DNA from: Actinomycetes bacterium
GTDB taxonomy: Bacteria; Actinomycetota; Acidimicrobiia; Acidimicrobiales; JAKAOS01
DNA: 64,000 nucleotides
NCBI GenBank assembly: GCA_021795215.1
Contig: JAJYPS010000001.1
Span: 728 to 64,727, forward strand
Direction: 5' to 3'
Positions 13,489-27,507 of this stretch are shown here, piece by piece. The position numbers and the translations under genes are program-made. Each line of letters begins with the position of its first letter. The stretch's first letter is position 1. A model generated the notes under the pieces. The model was not told the DNA's origin. It saw only the letters and a program-made list of their open reading frames with translations, and did not search any database.

Positions 13489-14178
13489 CTACATGGCCTC
13501 CTTGATGCCCTTGCGGATGAGCCAGACGTTGACCGGCCAGGCGGTGAAGAAGCCGATGATCATTCCGACCTGCATCAGGAACCAGAACGCAGCATGGTCC
13601 GGGTGGATGTGGTTCGGGGACAGTACGAACTGCATGAACGCCATCCAGCCGAACAGCCCCACCTCGAACGCGGTGAGTGACAGCACGTCAGCCTTGGCCG
13701 CCTCGATCAGGCCCTCACGCACCCCCAGGCCGCGCATGGGTGCGATCGCGAAATACTGGAAGACGATCCCGAAGCTGACCGCAAGGACGTAGTCGCCGAT
13801 CAACTCCGGTATCAGCGAAAGACCGAGGATGGTAGCGCCGAGGCCGAACACGGCCCACTCCGCGCACAGGTCTCCCAGGGTGCAACCAGCGCCGCAGTGG
13901 CTCACCCCGGTGGCGATCGTCGACCAGCCCGCCCGCTCCGGCGGCTCCTCGTAGCCGTGTTCGGCCCGCCAGGCAGGACTCTTCGGCCACCCGAAGCGCC
14001 GGTACCCCCACACGGCAGCAGGCCCGAAATAGAGAGCGGTGATCGGCCAGACCGCTTCCATGACTCCCATCTGCTGGCGGTGACCCCGCAACCACAGGTC
14101 GGCGGCGATCCACCCTGCGCACAGGAGTGCCGAGGCGATCGCCGCCCAACTGAGGATCGTCAACCAGGCGGGAGGCAT
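13489..14178 (-). CDS. DUF4396-like integral membrane protein
   Basis: GVSHCGAGCTLGDL and multiple hydrophobic helices. It is a complete 229-aa ORF. Confidence 0.7.
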   Translation of the reverse strand: MPPAWLTILSWAAIASALLCAGWIAADLWLRGHRQQMGVMEAVWPITALYFGPAAVWGYRRFGWPKSPAWRAEHGYEEPPERAGWSTIATGVSHCGAGCTLGDLCAEWAVFGLGATILGLSLIPELIGDYVLAVSFGIVFQYFAIAPMRGLGVREGLIEAAKADVLSLTAFEVGLFGWMAFMQFVLSPNHIHPDHAAFWFLMQVGMIIGFFTAWPVNVWLIRKGIKEAM

Positions 14179-20931: not shown

Positions 20932-23847
20932 TCAGAGCTTGGTCGGCAGGACGAAAGCGTCCTTGGTCGGCTTCAGAGGACGCAGCAACCAACGCGGGCG
21001 TCGAGTGCCCAGGGGCGAGACGGTGGTGGCGGGCCGTGCCATCGACATCCACTTCTTGAACACCTGCCGAGAGAGAGCGGTGTCGACTGCCACCTCCCCG
21101 GCCACGTCGCCCGGCTCGGCAGGCCGCACCCGCACCGCCTGGTGCCAGCAGTGCATCCCCGAGACGGGATCAGGATGGACCGGGAACGTGATGTTCTGGT
21201 GGACACCCACGTCGCTCCACCAGATGCGCTTCGTATCGGGGTCGGGAGAGTCGTACGGGCCGATCTCACCCTTCGGGGTCATACGCCAGCCACCCTCGTC
21301 GTGCGTCAGGTTCACCGTCCGCATCATCTTGTTCTCGCCCTGGTTGTCGTGCAGCTTCCAGCGGCCCATGTGGTGACTGCAGGCGACGACCCCGGGCCGT
21401 ATCCCTTCGGTCACCCACGCCTTCGCAACGAAATGGCCTATCTCCGTCTCGACGCGGGTCAGGTCGCCCTGACCGATCCCCAGCCGCGCCGCATCGATCG
21501 GATGGATCCATACCGGGTTGGTATGAGCGATCTCGTCCAGCCACTTGGCGTTGGCGGAGCGAGTGTGGATCTGGACCGGCAGGCGGAATGTGGACATGAG
21601 TGCCATCTGGTCCCGTTCCAGCTGTGAACGGTGCACGTGGCTGCGGATGTAGGTGGGCAGTGCCGCCTCCGCCCATCCCCAGTTGTCCAGTGTCGACGAA
21701 TAGAACTCCAGCCGGCCGCTCGGAGTGGGAAAGCCTCGCAGGATGCTTCCGTCCACCGTGATGCCGACCGGCCGGCGGCCCTCCTCGTCGGGATCAGGAT
21801 CGCCGATCGGCACCACGTTGGGCCCTGCTGGCTTCGGCGCCCGGGTGTAGACCCGCCCGATGTCGTTCACCACGGCATCGTCGATCTCCTCCTGAGGCAC
21901 CTCTCGCTCGTAGAGCGGACCGATGCCCTTGGCGATCTCGAACGCTCCGTAGCGGCGCATGAACTGGAGCGGCGTCAGCCCCTCCTTCGAAGCCGTCTCG
22001 GGCAGGCCCGGGACCGAGTTCTCGAACATCCAGCCGTAGTACTCGTCCACGCTCAGCTTCTGACCGGGCCGGGCCTTCGACTCGTGGTACTTCCGAATGC
22101 CCATGCTGCCGTCCGGATCGATCCTCCACGACAGGTCGATCCAGAACTCATTCTCTTCCCACACCTCACCCGGGTTGACCTGGCGCGTGTCGGTGATCGT
22201 CTCACCCAGCCGCTCCCGTGCCGCCCTCAGCACCGGTTGACGGAACCCCAGCCACTGCCCGTCGTACTGCTCGTAGGAGTGGGTGTCGTGACGCTCCGAC
22301 GAGTGACCCATGGGCAAGACGTAGTCGGCGAAGAACGCCGTCTCGTTCCACGTCGGCGTCAGCGCCACGTAGCAGCCCACCTTGGACTCGTCCAGCAGCA
22401 TCTCGATCCAGCTGAACCCGTCCGGATTGGTCCACACCGGGTTGTAGACCCGCGTGAAGTAGACCTCCAACCGGCCCTTGCCCTCGTCCATCAGATGAGG
22501 CAAGAGGAACGACAGCTCGTTCATCGCAAGGGGGAACTCGACCGGCCAGGAGAGGTCGCTCCAGACGGCCGGGTGGGGCGGCACGTGGATCGGGCGGGGG
22601 ACGAACTTGTTCCACGCGTTGGGGAACGTGCTGCCCGGCGTCGCGACGGCGCCCATGAGCGCGTTGAGCATGAACAGCGTGCGGGATACCTGCCATCCGC
22701 CCAGGTTGGAGGCGGAAGCCGAACGCCAGGTGTGGGTCGCCAGCGCCGTGCCCGCTCCCGAGATCAGCCGTGCCACCTCCTCCAGTGTCGCTGCGTCCAC
22801 TCCCGATTCGGCGGCCGCGAACTCGAACGTGTACGACGAGTACAGCTCTTCCAGCACCTCCTGGAAGCTTTCGAACGTCTGGGGCAGCTCCGGTTTCCGC
22901 ACGGCCATGTACTCCTGCCAGTTCCACCACCGCCGCACGAAGTCCGAGTTGTAGAGCTGGTTCCGGATGAGATAGCTCGCGATCGCCAGGTTGACTGCCG
23001 CCTCCGACCCCGGGTACGTCGACAGCCAGTGGTCGGCGTGCGTGGCGGTGTTCGAGAGCCTCGTGTCGGCCACTATGAGCTTGGCGCCGTTGGCGCGCGC
23101 TTCGGTGATCCTCTGGGCGTGCGGATTGAAGTAGTGGCCGGTCTCCAGATGAGAGCTGATGAGGTATATCACCTTCGCGTTGGCGAAGTCGGCGCTGGGC
23201 CGGTCCATGCCCAGCCAATAGTGGTAGCCGGCCCTGCCGCCGGACGAGCACACGTTCGTGTGGCTGTTGTGCCCGTCGACACCCCAGGAGGCGAGCACGC
23301 GCTCCGTGTAGCCGTCCTCTCCTGGCCGGCCGATGTGGCACATGATCTCGTTGTTCCGGCCCTCTTCCAGAGCCTTGCGAAGCCGAGCCGCGATCTCGTC
23401 CAGAGCAACGTCCCAGCTCACTCGCTCCCACCGACCCTCGCCGCGCTTCCCCGCCCTTCGCAGCGGGTAGAGCACGCGGTCCGGGTCGGTCACCTGGTTG
23501 ATCGTCGCAGGCCCCTTGGCGCAGTTCCTTCCACGTGAGCCGGGATGTTCGGGGTTCCCCTCGAACTTTCGTACCTGCAGTGTGTCCCGATCGACGTAAG
23601 CAAGCAGCCCGCATGCCGACTCGCAGTTGAAACAGGTGGTCGGCACCAGCATGGAACGATGGTGGACCCTCTCCGGCCACGCTCTCGAGTCGAGCTCGAC
23701 CCAGTCGTCCCAGCGCTCCTTCGGGGGAAACGATGCCAGATGCACCCTGGACGGCCCGGGGTAGAACGTCTCGCCCCGACTCTCCACCTGTTGTCTGGCA
23801 GCGCTCACTTCGGCTGCCAGACGCTCGAGTTTGCGGGTCATAGCCAC
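20932..23847 (-). CDS. molybdopterin (bis-MGD) oxidoreductase catalytic subunit, Psr/Phs/Soe-like, with no twin-arginine signal
   Basis: N-terminal FeS0 motif CFNCESACGLLAY...C, HTNVCSSGGRAG (Cys ligand region), 971 aa. The N-terminus MAMTRKLERLAAEV lacks an RR motif. Confidence 0.85.
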   Translation of the reverse strand: MAMTRKLERLAAEVSAARQQVESRGETFYPGPSRVHLASFPPKERWDDWVELDSRAWPERVHHRSMLVPTTCFNCESACGLLAYVDRDTLQVRKFEGNPEHPGSRGRNCAKGPATINQVTDPDRVLYPLRRAGKRGEGRWERVSWDVALDEIAARLRKALEEGRNNEIMCHIGRPGEDGYTERVLASWGVDGHNSHTNVCSSGGRAGYHYWLGMDRPSADFANAKVIYLISSHLETGHYFNPHAQRITEARANGAKLIVADTRLSNTATHADHWLSTYPGSEAAVNLAIASYLIRNQLYNSDFVRRWWNWQEYMAVRKPELPQTFESFQEVLEELYSSYTFEFAAAESGVDAATLEEVARLISGAGTALATHTWRSASASNLGGWQVSRTLFMLNALMGAVATPGSTFPNAWNKFVPRPIHVPPHPAVWSDLSWPVEFPLAMNELSFLLPHLMDEGKGRLEVYFTRVYNPVWTNPDGFSWIEMLLDESKVGCYVALTPTWNETAFFADYVLPMGHSSERHDTHSYEQYDGQWLGFRQPVLRAARERLGETITDTRQVNPGEVWEENEFWIDLSWRIDPDGSMGIRKYHESKARPGQKLSVDEYYGWMFENSVPGLPETASKEGLTPLQFMRRYGAFEIAKGIGPLYEREVPQEEIDDAVVNDIGRVYTRAPKPAGPNVVPIGDPDPDEEGRRPVGITVDGSILRGFPTPSGRLEFYSSTLDNWGWAEAALPTYIRSHVHRSQLERDQMALMSTFRLPVQIHTRSANAKWLDEIAHTNPVWIHPIDAARLGIGQGDLTRVETEIGHFVAKAWVTEGIRPGVVACSHHMGRWKLHDNQGENKMMRTVNLTHDEGGWRMTPKGEIGPYDSPDPDTKRIWWSDVGVHQNITFPVHPDPVSGMHCWHQAVRVRPAEPGDVAGEVAVDTALSRQVFKKWMSMARPATTVSPLGTRRPRWLLRPLKPTKDAFVLPTKL

Positions 23848-23878
23848 GACCGACCTTCCTTTGCCGCCACCGGCGCGG

Positions 23879-25480
23879 TCACGCGAGTGGCACCGACTGA
23901 GCTGCTTGCACGTACGAATGCTCGTGGGGCAGAAGACCGGCCAGAGCGACGAGTCCCGCCCACCAGCCCACGAACGGGGCGAGAACGCCTACGGCCAGCA
24001 TCGCTGCTCCGACCCAGAAGGCACTGGCGTAGCGACCGTGGGTCATCTCCCTGGCGGCGAGATGGGCGTGGGCAGTGGGGTGACCGGTGGCGGTCTCCGC
24101 CAGCCGCAGCAGCAGGTGCGCCGCCGCTGCCGCCGCCACGAATATCGCAAGCGCACCCGTTACAGCGGGCTGGAACGCCACTGCGACAGGAAGCATCGAC
24201 GCAGACCCGGCGAGCACGGCCTCGACCGCCAGATGCGGAGCGAGGATGGGGCTCTGCCACAGGTCCCTCGCCCTCGCCTGGGCGAAAAGGAACGCCGTGT
24301 ATATGGCCGTCGCGATCGCCGCAGGAATGCCCACGAACGCCAGCGCCTGGTGTGCTGTTCCGGAAAGCCCGTGGACGGCCGATGCCCCCAGCAGAGCCGG
24401 CGTCCCGAGCACCGACGTCACCAACTGGGCGGTCAGCACAAGTCCGTAGAGCGAGATCACCACGCTTCCCTTGACCAGCCAGCTTCCCCATTTGTGCTTG
24501 GTGAAGATCATGTAGAACCGGAACGGATGCTTCAGGTCCCAGATGAGCAGCACCCCCGTCACACTCAGGAAGGCGAGCGCTACCAGGGGGGCGGCCCAAC
24601 TGACCAGCGGAGAGGTCCACGAGACGAGCCCGAACGCCGCCAGGAGCGCAGGCACGAGGTATGCGCCGGCCGAGATTCCCTTCGTCCAGGTGTAGAGGCT
24701 CACCCTCCATCCCCAAGGAGCCGTGTGGGCGACGTCGTAGGAAACGACCGCCCGAGGCGCCGAAGTCTCCCGACCGTGGCTCACCGGGTGGCCGGAGTTG
24801 ACCACTTGGGGGCCCTCCAGCATCTGGGACCACATGAACGTGCCGCCGTCCGGCCGCTCCGCCGCAAGAGGATCCAGCGTCGACTGATGGGCTCCCTTGT
24901 AGAAAAGCTTCGGCCTCGTCTTCTTTTCGGGACGCCTCACCGACACCGGTTGCCGGTGCACCGTCTGGGAGACCTTCGACGTGGGGTCCGACAGATCGCC
25001 GACCAGGATCGCCTCGGTCGGGCACACCACCACGCACGCCGGCTCCAAGCCGATCTCGAGCCGATGGGCGCAGAAGTTGCACTTCTCCGCGGAATGGTCC
25101 TCCGGATTTATGAATATGGCGTCGTAGGGGCAAGCCGCCATGCACGCCTTGCAGCCGATGCAGATCCGCTTGTCGAAGTCGACGATCTTGTCCGGCCGGA
25201 TGTACATGGCGCCCGTCGGGCACGCTGCCACGCAGGGCGGGTTCTCGCACTGGTTGCACCTGGTCACCTGGAACGCCCTCCGCACCTGGGGGAACGTCCC
25301 GACGTCGACCGACTTCACGTACGTCCGAGTCACGCCCAGAGGAACGTTGTTCTCGCTCTTGCACGCCGTGGTGCACGCATGGCAGCCGATGCAGCGGGTC
25401 TGGTCGAGCACCTTCACCCATCGAGGCGACCCGTCAGAGCCGCTCGCCACCGTCGGCCGATCCTGGCTCACGCTTACCAA
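23879..25480 (-). CDS. fusion of a four-cluster 4Fe-4S subunit (PsrB/DmsB-like) with an NrfD/PsrC-like membrane anchor
   Basis: Cysteine clusters CIGCHACTTAC, CNQCENPPCVAACP, CIGCKACMAACP and CNFCAHRL...CVVVCP are followed by about 8 helices. TTG 25480 sits 7 nt after aaggagggg. The track ORF runs to 25678. Confidence 0.8.
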   Translation of the reverse strand: MVSVSQDRPTVASGSDGSPRWVKVLDQTRCIGCHACTTACKSENNVPLGVTRTYVKSVDVGTFPQVRRAFQVTRCNQCENPPCVAACPTGAMYIRPDKIVDFDKRICIGCKACMAACPYDAIFINPEDHSAEKCNFCAHRLEIGLEPACVVVCPTEAILVGDLSDPTSKVSQTVHRQPVSVRRPEKKTRPKLFYKGAHQSTLDPLAAERPDGGTFMWSQMLEGPQVVNSGHPVSHGRETSAPRAVVSYDVAHTAPWGWRVSLYTWTKGISAGAYLVPALLAAFGLVSWTSPLVSWAAPLVALAFLSVTGVLLIWDLKHPFRFYMIFTKHKWGSWLVKGSVVISLYGLVLTAQLVTSVLGTPALLGASAVHGLSGTAHQALAFVGIPAAIATAIYTAFLFAQARARDLWQSPILAPHLAVEAVLAGSASMLPVAVAFQPAVTGALAIFVAAAAAAHLLLRLAETATGHPTAHAHLAAREMTHGRYASAFWVGAAMLAVGVLAPFVGWWAGLVALAGLLPHEHSYVQAAQSVPLA

Positions 25481-25656
25481 CTTCGGTCCCCTCCTTGTCC
25501 GGCTCCTAGTCGGCCGGCTTCTGGCCCGTCCGGACTCCGGCTCCAAAGCATGTCGGAGCCGCCCAGCTTGCCCGCTGCTCGGACGACTTCCGTTGCAACC
25601 GTCTCGGTGTACTCCGCCCGCCCCGTCGTCCCGATCCGCCGGACCAGGCTTCGGGG

Positions 25657-25703
25657 CCAATACCGCCAAATCCGCCAAGCTGCCAATACCGCCAAATCCG
25701 CCA
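25657..25703. repeat. 21-bp direct repeat x2 (ccaataccgccaaatccgcca), 26-bp period, upstream of the FeS-NrfD gene
   Basis: The copies at 25657-25677 and 25683-25703 are identical. Confidence 0.9.
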
Positions 25704-25796: not shown

Positions 25797-26759
25797 CTAT
25801 GGCGCCGACGAATGCTGGCGGTCGACAACGCCCTTCACGCCGGGCAGCTGCGCAAGGAGCGCTGCAGCGGCAGGTGCCAGAGCCCGGGACGCAGGCCAGA
25901 GGGCGTGGAGCCGGCGGCTCATGTCCAGACCGGCGACTTCGATCGGGCAGAGGGCGCCCGAAGCGAGCTGGTCCGCCACGGCCAGTCGGCTCAACACACC
26001 CGGTCCAGCCCCACCCGCCACAGCTGCCACTACTGAGCTCGAAGAGCCGAGCTCGAGCCGAGCCTTGAGCGAGGGCGCGCCGACCACGTCGAGTGCCCTG
26101 TCCAGTGCCTCCCGCGTCCCCGAGTCCGGCTCCCTCACCACCAGCGGTGTCGCCACCAACGCAGCGACCGACAGGGGGGCTCTCCGACGCGTCCAAGCGT
26201 GTCCGGGCGGTACAACTACCACTAGGTCGTCGCTTCCCACGACCTTGTATGCCATGTCCCCCGGAAGCTCGGGAGCTTCCACGAAGCCGAGGTCGAACCC
26301 GTCCCGCACCCTGTCCACCACACGAGTCGAGTTGGCGACCTCCAGCTCGGTCCGCACGCTCGGAACGGACCGCTGGAATTTCGAGAGCCATCTCGGCAAG
26401 AGGTGCTCGGCGATGGTGAAGCTGGCTGCCAGGCGCAGCCGGCCGGTCCGCTCCCTGCGGAGGGCCGAAACCCCCGCTGTCAAGTGCTCGGCGGCCTCCA
26501 GGACGCGCTGCGCCCACTCCGCGACCACCGCACCGTCCTCAGTCGGCACCGACCCCGTGGCACCCCGTTCCAGAAGCTTCACCCCGAGTTGGCGCTCGAG
26601 CCCAGCGAGACGAGCGCTCACCGAAGGTTGGGCAAGCCCGGCGGCGGCGGCGGCACGCGACACGCTACCCAGCCGAGACACCAACACGAACAGTCGGAGC
26701 GCTTCCAGGGACGGTAGCGGCGGTGCCGTCCGAGGCGAACGGACGCCCGGATCGTTCAT
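25797..26759 (-). CDS. LysR-family transcriptional regulator
   Basis: HTH LEALRLFVLVSRLGSVSRAAAAAGLAQPSVSARLAGLERQLG followed by a LysR substrate-binding domain. Start chosen at MNDPG (26759). Confidence 0.9.
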   Translation of the reverse strand: MNDPGVRSPRTAPPLPSLEALRLFVLVSRLGSVSRAAAAAGLAQPSVSARLAGLERQLGVKLLERGATGSVPTEDGAVVAEWAQRVLEAAEHLTAGVSALRRERTGRLRLAASFTIAEHLLPRWLSKFQRSVPSVRTELEVANSTRVVDRVRDGFDLGFVEAPELPGDMAYKVVGSDDLVVVVPPGHAWTRRRAPLSVAALVATPLVVREPDSGTREALDRALDVVGAPSLKARLELGSSSSVVAAVAGGAGPGVLSRLAVADQLASGALCPIEVAGLDMSRRLHALWPASRALAPAAAALLAQLPGVKGVVDRQHSSAP

Positions 26760-27507
26760 CCGGCTCGGCGCCCGAACCGGCCAGTCCCTCCGGTGCATGG
26801 GGCCACTCGGGTGCCGAGGCAGCCATACCGGTAGACGCCTGCCCGGCCGGGCCTCCTCTCGGTGACACCCCGCAACATGACTCGATCATACGGCCGACGT
26901 GGGCGAATCCCGTCGCCGTTTGCAATCACCTGCCAGCAAGAGTAAGCCTTGGTCGCCGTACTCGCCGGCTTGCTTCGAAAGGAGCCAACCATTGCGTTGG
27001 AGTCGCACCTTGAAGCTCCCTCTGTCGAAAAGGGTGACCACCACCGCCGGCATCCTCCAAAGGCTGCCGGGCGGGAACCCGCGCCGCGGTCGACATCGCT
27101 CCCAGCACGCCACCAGACCGGTAGAGCTGACCGTGGTCGGAGCGCCGTTCGAACGGGCCGGCCGCCGGCTACCGTCCGATCTGCCGGTGACGCCGACGAT
27201 CGTGGCGGGCGCCCCGATAACGGTCGCAGGCGACGCAGCGTCGGCAGCCTCGGCAGGAGCCGCCGTTCCGAGCTCGCCACGCGCACGGATGGACCGTGCC
27301 CATGCGGCTGCAGGCCCGGCCGCCCTGCCTAGAGCATCTGCCTTTCGCACGTTCGTCACCTCTCCCCTGCCTCGGCGAATGTCGGGCAAGGTCCACCCTG
27401 CCAGGAGAAGCTTCACGCCCCCGCTTCCAGCGCCCCAGGGAGGCCGGTGGTACGGCGACAAGGCGATCTTCGCCGCACCGGCGTCGGGCGTGTACCGCTA
27501 CCTGGCT

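Follow-up and report, generated by a model that had tools for sequence, protein, structure and literature searches.

On which side of the cytoplasmic membrane does a molybdoenzyme work when its catalytic subunit lacks an export signal and its iron-sulfur subunit is covalently joined to the membrane anchor? This question is raised by a pair of genes in a 64,000-nucleotide stretch of DNA, called the window below, from a metagenome-assembled genome (MAG) of Actinomycetota (GenBank assembly GCA_021795215.1, contig JAJYPS010000001.1, positions 728 to 64,727). One gene, here called BC, encodes a four-cluster ferredoxin (B) and an NrfD-type anchor (C) in a single open reading frame (ORF), and the other, A, encodes the catalytic Mo/W subunit. 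An earlier note, made from the sequence alone, had placed the enzyme on the cytoplasmic side and called it Soe-like, after the sulfite-oxidizing SoeABC complex.

Here, the architecture of the pair, its conservation, its orientation and its gene neighbourhood are examined together. We will argue that the complex very probably faces the cytoplasm, and that its reaction is probably, though far from securely, the oxidation of sulfite to sulfate. The architecture itself is already known, since the fused psrBC, the psrBCA gene order and a PsrA without a signal for twin-arginine translocation (Tat) have been published. New here are the breadth of its occurrence, with at least 590 species genomes from many phyla and from haloarchaea, the quantified charge bias of the anchor and its reversal in two of three split relatives that bear a Tat signal, and the recurrent link to the heterotrophic pathway that combines sulfide:quinone oxidoreductase (SQR) with persulfide dioxygenase (PDO) as well as to SulP, TauE, DsrE and TusA genes. 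The value of the pair lies in a well-supported and testable candidate for a widespread cytoplasmic sulfite dehydrogenase of non-Soe type, and in a natural case of membrane-complex inversion.

The fused gene and its partner

By domain content, A and BC together make up a complex iron-sulfur molybdoenzyme of the Psr/Phs/Ttr/Soe group, with three modules on two polypeptides. BC combines a four-cluster ferredoxin module for electron transfer with a haem-free, quinone-binding NrfD/PsrC anchor of eight helices, as is characteristic of this group. It starts at TTG 25480, with the ribosome-binding site aaggagg 8 nt upstream, and encodes 533 aa plus the stop codon; an identical database protein is also called at 533 aa. 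The fusion, the TTG start and the good ribosome-binding site described in the earlier note are thus correct, while its length of 534 aa counts the stop. A longer BC from 25678 (599 aa) was considered and set aside, as the extra 66 residues are hydrophilic and are backed by neither the homologues nor the database call.

The ferredoxin half is matched at residues 19-197 by PsrB (2vpw_B, E 1.9e-51), its top NCBIfam matches are TtrB, NrfC and DsrO, all below their cut-offs, and its 16 cluster cysteines are all unchanged throughout 37 homologues. Neither a signal peptide nor a transmembrane helix precedes it. The last ~15 residues of the linker that follows (SYDVAHTAPWGWRVSLY) match the N-terminus of free-standing C subunits in the alignment with the split C proteins of the contig L082 and of Azoarcus. 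In the anchor, the earlier note had described about eight helices, and the AlphaFold model places eight (258-282, 291-315, 334-358, 366-403, 413-436, 438-464, 485-504 and 507-529, pLDDT >90), for which Foldseek returns PsrC (2vpw_C, TMt 0.72) and ActC (8k9e_C). When the PDB was searched with a profile built from the BC alignment, ferredoxin matches swamped the result and PsrC was not reached, unlike with Foldseek.

The fusion is widely conserved. Both the B and the C domain are covered by proteins of more than 120 clusters, at 63-74% identity, and a scan in which each species was represented by one genome found at least 590 relatives confirmed by tblastn. Locus counts out of 80 refer here and below to the best 80 of these at least 590 relatives. 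The BC match is a single continuous stretch in 80/80, A follows directly in 73/80 (where the contig allows), and a TorD-like homologue comes next in 42/80. Carriers of the BC-A pair belong to Actinomycetota, Acidobacteriota, Gemmatimonadota, Chloroflexota, Binatia, Myxococcota and haloarchaea; the haloarchaeal and Chloroflexota/Thermomicrobia homologues have the same layout at 49-59% identity by tblastn, or 58-64% over aligned columns. A frameshift that merely joins two separate genes, which the earlier note had named as a refuting case, is ruled out by the two-domain clusters and the species genomes, among them complete genomes of cultured strains.

In eight Pyrinomonadaceae loci (L014, L028, L044, L052, L059, L064, L065 and L077), 0.6-2.4 kb are inserted between BC and A, two genes that otherwise lie close together. 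An extra subunit was considered for these inserts and rejected, the genes being unrelated (DUF1905/OmdA, Uma2 endonuclease, GH25 lysozyme).

The catalytic subunit starts at GTG 23847, 6 nt downstream of the ribosome-binding site aaggaagg. This GTG is the first ATG, GTG or TTG after an in-frame stop 47 codons upstream, and because no start codon lies in between, a longer N-terminus, such as might have supplied a Tat signal, is not possible. The identical database protein for A is called at 969 aa. As the earlier note had stated, there is no Tat signal: residues 1-66 hold neither a twin arginine (RR) nor a hydrophobic stretch, and the maximum Kyte-Doolittle value in a 15-residue window is 1.03, located at the motif of the first cluster, FS0, whose cysteines begin with C72. 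The same hydrophilic, Tat-less N-terminus is conserved in 73 related loci. A regular-expression search of these 73 A subunits finds a recurrent RR only in 'ERRYMLVPTTCFNC' (ERRYML), immediately before FS0. The recurrent RR hits were rejected as Tat signals, since they are either this conserved ERRYML or lie in untranslated upstream frames.

The N-terminal extension has a layout of its own, with a predicted helix at residues 2-23 (in a low-confidence model) followed by the motif GETFYPGPS..FPPKERWDDWVELD, whose YPP.E.W part is also found after the signal peptide in Tat-bearing relatives. It may be a binding site for the TorD-like chaperone encoded next to A.

Further into the protein, the Pfam domains are Molybdop_Fe4S4 (PF04879), Molybdopterin (PF00384) and Molydop_binding (PF01568). 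The FS0 cysteines C72, C75, C79 and C109 are invariant among the A homologues, and Cys200 is invariant in 31 of them. In an alignment, Cys200 falls opposite segments of ArrA (SHSSVCAEA) and PsrA (VSLCTAP) whose cysteines we take to be Mo ligands, and on this basis it is predicted to be the protein ligand of Mo. The top relatives among solved structures are ArrA (6cz7), PsrA (2vpw, E 2.3e-32) and acetylene hydratase.

A is 65-80% identical among Actinomycetota, Chloroflexota, Gemmatimonadota, Acidobacteriota and others, and homologues are also found on plasmids or megaplasmids of cultured strains. This high conservation and the plasmid location suggest strong constraint together with horizontal transfer. 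In the databases, the family is named 'formate dehydrogenase' (UniRef entries of Thermomicrobium roseum, Nitrospinota and Entotheonella), 'anaerobic selenocysteine-containing dehydrogenase' (JGI) and 'polysulfide reductase NrfD'. The 'formate dehydrogenase' names are generic mis-annotations, and no name is backed by a curated model at its cut-off.

Orientation in the membrane

Because the ferredoxin is the N-terminal half of the anchor polypeptide, its position decides how the anchor is inserted. A folded, cofactor-loaded four-cluster domain ahead of eight helices cannot cross the membrane by Sec and stays in the cytoplasm, so that helix 1 inserts with its N-terminus inside. The loop charges agree with this topology. 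Lysine and arginine residues (K+R) number 7.7 on average on the loops of the FeS-domain side (2-3, 4-5 and 6-7) versus 1.3 on the other loops, and the bias is present in 77 of 77 homologues. With helix cores taken from AlphaFold models, the counts are 8-16 versus 0-3 in seven diverse fused proteins. As to the side of the fusion's N-terminus, a point raised by the earlier note, the loop charges thus put the FeS domain in the cytoplasm.

A natural control is provided by relatives that do bear a Tat signal. In P0246 (47% identity) and P0264, A has a classic RRxFLK signal, B and C are separate, and the gene order is B-C-A; in P0246, A is followed by a TorD-like chaperone gene. Together with P0307, these sister lineages are 34-48% identical to the window A and share with it the YPP.E.W motif and a homologous anchor. 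A more distant, Psr-like Tat enzyme on the Azoarcus plasmid pAZKH also has the split B-C-A layout with a chaperone. Each helix of the fused anchor has its counterpart in the free C subunits, and two of these three subunits show the opposite charge bias: 4 cis versus 7 trans in L082_C, the C subunit of P0246, and 2 versus 6 in Azoarcus. Fused BC, on the other hand, accompanies every Tat-less A that was examined, namely those of the 73 loci, the window, P0241, P0242, P0252, Rhodococcus jostii RHA1, T. roseum and Natrinema, and no fused member with a Tat signal was seen among the examined contexts.

With no signal on either polypeptide, a fusion topology that holds the FeS domain inside, positive-inside loops and Tat-bearing split relatives as the control, we predict with high confidence that the enzyme faces the cytoplasm. 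A would be made, loaded with its cofactor with the help of the TorD-like chaperone and kept in the cytoplasm, and the whole complex would be mounted upside down relative to the periplasmic polysulfide, thiosulfate and tetrathionate reductases. We regard it as very improbable that the enzyme instead faces the periplasm by way of non-canonical export, or that the fusion is an annotation or sequencing artefact. Tat-bearing relatives do occur in the same superclade, and the N-terminus of the window A (MAMTRKLERLAA) is loosely like that of P0246 (MAMHRRTFLKAA). However, a periplasmic position is contradicted by the lack of an upstream start codon and of a hydrophobic region, by the hydrophilic N-terminus in the 73 loci, by the N-in charge bias of all 77 homologues and by the inability of the ferredoxin domain to cross by Sec, and an artefact by the presence of the fusion in hundreds of independent assemblies, including those of cultured strains.

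The resemblance between the two N-termini concerns the first residues of the window A (23812-23847) and of P0246 (L082:3687-). The window N-terminus may be what is left of a twin-arginine motif, but the other 73 Tat-less homologues do not share the pattern.

The TorD/NarJ-like protein is itself unusual in length, typical TorD proteins having ~200 aa and that of the window, at 337 aa, being far longer. Pfam covers residues 41-141 only, while tblastn matches in related loci often reach about residue 320, which leaves a conserved C-terminal half without an assigned domain.

In a neighbour-joining tree, the fused Tat-less proteins group with the three Tat-bearing lineages in a single superclade (support 100%), from which ordinary Psr-like enzymes are separate. 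Its internal bootstraps are 28-49%, and the number of Tat-loss or fusion events is not resolved. In L082 (P0246), the B stop overlaps the C start as TGATG, so that a single small change could create a B-C fusion. A Marine Group A fosmid carries one Tat-less member whose psrB and psrC are not fused (PMC3906813), which means that Tat loss does not require fusion. The P0246 metagenome contig (L082:1745-8720), which represents the closest of the Tat-bearing lineages, holds B, C, a 1115-aa A and TorD, with a cytochrome c gene upstream of them and an extra 359-aa multi-cluster ferredoxin after TorD.

These relationships lead to a more far-reaching idea, which we put forward as tentative and rather doubtful, namely that the covalent B-C fusion was the device that flipped the anchor, with the loop charges re-optimised afterwards, and that the fused form supplies the cytoplasmic conversion of sulfite to sulfate that is missing from the heterotrophic SQR-PDO pathway of sulfide oxidation, and is a major sulfite dehydrogenase distinct from SoeABC. 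In such a scenario, A would lose its Tat signal, the FeS domain joined to helix 1 would force N-in insertion, and the loop charges would then adapt. If this is true, a three-module machine is found in either membrane orientation within one superclade, and a fused sulfite dehydrogenase that is now mis-annotated occurs, in soil and in water, in Actinomycetota, Acidobacteriota, Gemmatimonadota, Chloroflexota and haloarchaea. The BC-A family is also a clean natural test of respiratory-module inversion, with fused Tat-less and split Tat-bearing members that share gene order and anchors and have swapped loop charges.

Reaction and rival readings

Since no curated family model reaches its cut-off, the substrate has to be inferred from the context. 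In the window, the order on the minus strand is LysR regulator, BC, A, TorD/NarJ-like chaperone, a fusion of a metallo-β-lactamase (MBL) fold with a rhodanese, and SQR. The MBL-rhodanese protein, a CstB-like PDO, matches 3tp9 (2.6e-67) and 3r2u (1.6e-50), and also ETHE1 and BpPRF, and the SQR matches human SQOR (6mp5, E 3.4e-102). When the two ORFs closest to the pair on either side are assigned to Pfam families in 34 related loci, the census finds Rhodanese 14 times, Lactamase_B 11, TorD 11, SulP+STAS 8, DsrE-like domains 6 (DrsE_2) and 5 (DsrE), and an ArsR-type helix-turn-helix 5-6 times.

Individual genomes give a similar picture. On the linear plasmid pRHL3 of R. jostii RHA1 (L085, 213-233 kb), BC-A lies in a sulfur island with three MBL-fold genes, a DsrE-like gene, TusA, thioredoxin and two ArsR regulators; the island further holds two DUF202 genes, Mrp/NBP35 and a transporter of the major facilitator superfamily. 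In T. roseum, the gene directly upstream of the pair encodes a 'metal-sensitive transcriptional regulator', which we take to belong to the CsoR/CstR family. The neighbours in Natrinema are a rhodanese, a TauE/SafE exporter and MobA, and on a Myxococcota contig an MBL-rhodanese and two Sulf_transp genes.

The neighbours make cytoplasmic sulfite or thiosulfate and export anions, and the most economical reading is sulfite oxidation. On the strength of this neighbourhood, we lean, with moderate confidence, towards a reaction in which sulfite is oxidised to sulfate in the cytoplasm and the electrons are passed to quinone. Sulfite would be supplied by SQR and the CstB-like persulfide dioxygenase-rhodanese during the detoxification of sulfide and sulfane sulfur. 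The electrons would travel from Mo through FS0 and the four FeS clusters to menaquinone at a site on the cytoplasmic side, and sulfate would leave through an anion exporter, SulP or TauE genes adjoining the operon in other genomes. The sulfite:quinone reaction would by itself be electroneutral. Taken as a whole, the combination of this architecture, a cytoplasmic orientation and sulfite oxidation is in our judgement the best explanation of the locus, and a reasonably probable one.

Several findings weigh against it. No NCBIfam equivalog cut-off is reached by A or BC; the scores for A are 200 against a cut-off of 694 for PhsA, 163 against 666 for Fdh-alpha, and 22 bits for NarG. The AlphaFold model of A is poor (pLDDT 54), as is that of the FeS domain, and neither offers an active-site or docking argument. 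SQR adjoins only 2/80 loci, and a PDO-like gene lies within 8 kb in 34/80. A CstB-type enzyme may yield thiosulfate and not free sulfite, which weakens the logic of the substrate assignment. No biochemically characterised enzyme of the fused type was found in the searchable literature, and the substrate is read from the neighbourhood alone. A Tat-less A of ~960 aa with separate B and C, as in the Soe type, does not occur among the best 150 representatives. Finally, one split anchor of a Tat-bearing relative, L089_C, is ambiguous, with 9 cis versus 6 trans charges.

The same architecture and orientation could also serve a reductive reaction, with the enzyme using quinol to reduce polysulfide, persulfide or thiosulfate in the cytoplasm, like Psr, Phs or bacterial Sre; this would lower sulfane sulfur or recycle thiosulfate. 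The top profile and structure matches (PhsA, PsrA and ArrA) would fit such a role, as would the rhodanese, DsrE and TusA neighbours, which carry sulfane sulfur. The neighbouring SQR and PDO, however, run in the oxidative direction, the sulfate-type exporters (SulP in 8/34 loci, TauE) suit sulfate as the product, and the reduction of thiosulfate by menaquinol is energetically uphill. The literature can be cited on both sides: the Marine Group A homologue has been interpreted as a polysulfide reductase (Wright et al., PMC3906813) and bacterial SreA is listed in a review as a cytoplasmic sulfur reductase (PMC10100899), but the green-sulfur counterpart has been proposed as a sulfite oxidiser (PMC6338057). 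All in all, we consider the reductive direction unlikely.

It is also conceivable, although we judge it quite unlikely, that this cytoplasm-facing, quinone-linked molybdoenzyme handles another substrate, such as a different oxyanion of sulfur, selenium or arsenic, and that the sulfur genes are neighbours through shared regulation. That many loci have no sulfur gene within 8 kb is in line with this, and so are the lack of a curated family, the database name 'formate dehydrogenase' for A, and the top NCBIfam match of the LysR regulator, a 'selenium metabolism-associated' type at 184 bits against a cut-off of 250. Yet in the various phyla as in archaea, sulfur-related families prevail among the counted neighbours, the 65-80% identity of A across phyla argues for one conserved substrate, and the formate dehydrogenase names are generic, as the Fdh-alpha score given above illustrates.

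If sulfite oxidation is indeed the function, the enzyme closes the cytoplasmic route from sulfide through persulfide and sulfite to sulfate in many heterotrophs outside the Proteobacteria. Surveys of metagenomes search only for SoeABC, SorAB or Apr/Sat, and the sulfite oxidation of these organisms would then have been overlooked. The cultured carriers R. jostii RHA1 (pRHL3; genes RHA1_RS43840 and RHA1_RS43835) and T. roseum (genes TRD_RS12035 and TRD_RS12030) make both the orientation and the substrate testable.

Known relatives and remaining features of the locus

Wright et al. (2014, PMC3906813), who cite Frigaard and Bryant 2008 for the fused psrBC type, describe a Tat-less PsrA, fused psrBC and the psrBCA order in Marine Group A and Marine Group II, in several green sulfur bacteria, and in Haladaptatus and Caldilinea. 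The green-sulfur version is PSRLC3, recorded as '2 genes' (PMC5473276) and termed 'an alternative sulfite-oxidizing system' (PMC6338057), and for Gram-positives an earlier survey of chaperones noted TorD-like genes in '2-3 ORF nrfD-hybA-bisC' operons (PMC4464133). The window enzyme shares with PSRLC3/psrBCA the two genes, the BC fusion upstream of A and a Tat-less A that is predicted to be cytoplasmic; it differs in its host, an Actinomycetota MAG, and in its neighbours, which are SQR and a CstB-like PDO and not Dsr. Frigaard and Dahl 2008 is reportedly a further source on the PSRLC3/psrBCA complexes. Matched by architecture as described in the literature, the window enzyme fits this kind by its defining features. 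Neither green-sulfur nor Marine Group A members occur among the matches listed in the genome scan and in a homologue search seeded with the T. roseum protein. Homologues from haloarchaea and Chloroflexota, two groups to which the literature ascribes the fusion, are 49-64% identical.

The characterised enzyme that operates in this manner is SoeABC. SoeAB has been hypothesised to lie on the N-side with SoeC inverted, in a review that lists SoeC only in Proteobacteria, Clostridia and Aquificae and mentions no fusion (PMC8076601). With SoeABC of Allochromatium vinosum (SoeA Alvin_2491), Aquifex aeolicus (SoeA aq_1234) and Ruegeria pomeroyi, the window enzyme has in common the modules (Mo-bis(pyranopterin guanine dinucleotide), 4x[4Fe-4S] and NrfD), the lack of signal peptides, the predicted N-side orientation and a genomic tie to cytoplasmic systems that produce sulfite. 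SoeA, at ~109 kDa, is also similar in size to the window A. SoeABC, however, is encoded by three separate genes in the order A-B-C, whereas the window has a fused BC and the order B-C-A, and so lacks the separate soeA-soeB-soeC subunits. Of the label 'Soe-like', the orientation and probably the function, given the sulfide- and persulfide-oxidation neighbours, can be retained, but not the gene order and subunit structure. In the search for the best representatives, cluster names were generic only, and tblastn against plasmids gave no Soe-annotated match. The absence of the Soe type among the best 150 representatives suggests that the proteobacterial SoeA is not the closest relative of the window A, and the two enzymes are probably different clades with the same orientation.

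The periplasmic enzymes PsrABC (Thermus thermophilus, 2VPW), PhsABC and TtrBCA have the same three modules and folds and a Cys as Mo ligand, and Ttr shares the B-C-A gene order. They differ in the Tat export of A-B and in a free C with a periplasmic N-terminus, in contrast to the fused BC, the missing Tat signal and the reversed loop charges of the window. From the Tat-bearing sister lineages, the window enzyme is set apart by their twin-arginine signals, their separate B and C and the opposite charge bias of the anchor in L082; the P0246 type adds a cytochrome c and an extra FeS protein. NarGHI with NarJ is likewise cytoplasm-facing, has a chaperone of the TorD/NarJ family and carries a non-exporting N-terminal tail on its catalytic subunit, but it has an Asp ligand and a haem-b NarI anchor and belongs to another clade, as the 22 bits of NarG for the window A also indicate.

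The features of the locus are collected in Table 1.

Table 1. Features of the BC-A locus and its surroundings, in window coordinates.
Feature	Position	Strand	Basis and remarks
LysR-family regulator	25797..26798	-	Pfam HTH_1 + LysR_substrate; 316 nt upstream of BC gene
Two 22-nt direct repeats (GCCAATACCGCCAAATCCGCCA), perfect	25656..25703	.	Repeat search; start-to-start 26 nt; LysR-BC intergenic
BC fusion gene, 533 aa	23879..25480	-	TTG start; Fer4_11 + NrfD (Pfam)
Four-[4Fe-4S] ferredoxin domain, residues ~19-197, PsrB/NrfC/TtrB-like	24890..25426	-	PsrB 2vpw_B match
Linker between B-like and C-like modules, residues ~198-257	24710..24889	-	Alignment with split C subunits; low pLDDT
NrfD/PsrC-type anchor, 8 transmembrane helices	23882..24709	-	AlphaFold, Foldseek, charge counts
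Catalytic Mo/W-bisPGD subunit A, 971 aa, without Tat signal	20932..23847	-	Pfam
Hydrophilic N-terminal extension of A, residues 1-66	23650..23847	-	Conserved in 73 loci
FS0 [4Fe-4S] motif C72-x2-C75-x3-C79-x29-C109	23521..23634	-	Pfam Molybdop_Fe4S4, residues 67-119
Cys200 (SHTNVCSSGG), predicted Mo ligand	23248..23250	-	Alignment with ArrA, PsrA
TorD/NarJ-family maturation chaperone, 337 aa	19879..20892	-	Pfam Nitrate_red_del 1.3e-8; 39 nt downstream of A
CstB-like persulfide dioxygenase-rhodanese fusion, 453 aa	18321..19682	-	Pfam Lactamase_B + Rhodanese
Type II sulfide:quinone oxidoreductase (SQR), 406 aa	17054..18274	-	Pfam Pyr_redox_2; human SQOR match

The LysR gene is co-directional with the operon and not divergent from it. 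It is a possible regulator of the module, and the link is weak because a LysR homologue adjoins only 7/80 related loci. The 22-nt repeat pair lies ~175-225 nt upstream of the BC start and, judged by its sequence and position, is a possible operator.

The G+C content of the window is ~67%. On either side of the module lie unrelated genes, for riboflavin synthesis and for a glycosyltransferase. A DUF4396 membrane protein is encoded at 13489-14178, a few kb away from the sulfur genes and with no evident link to them.

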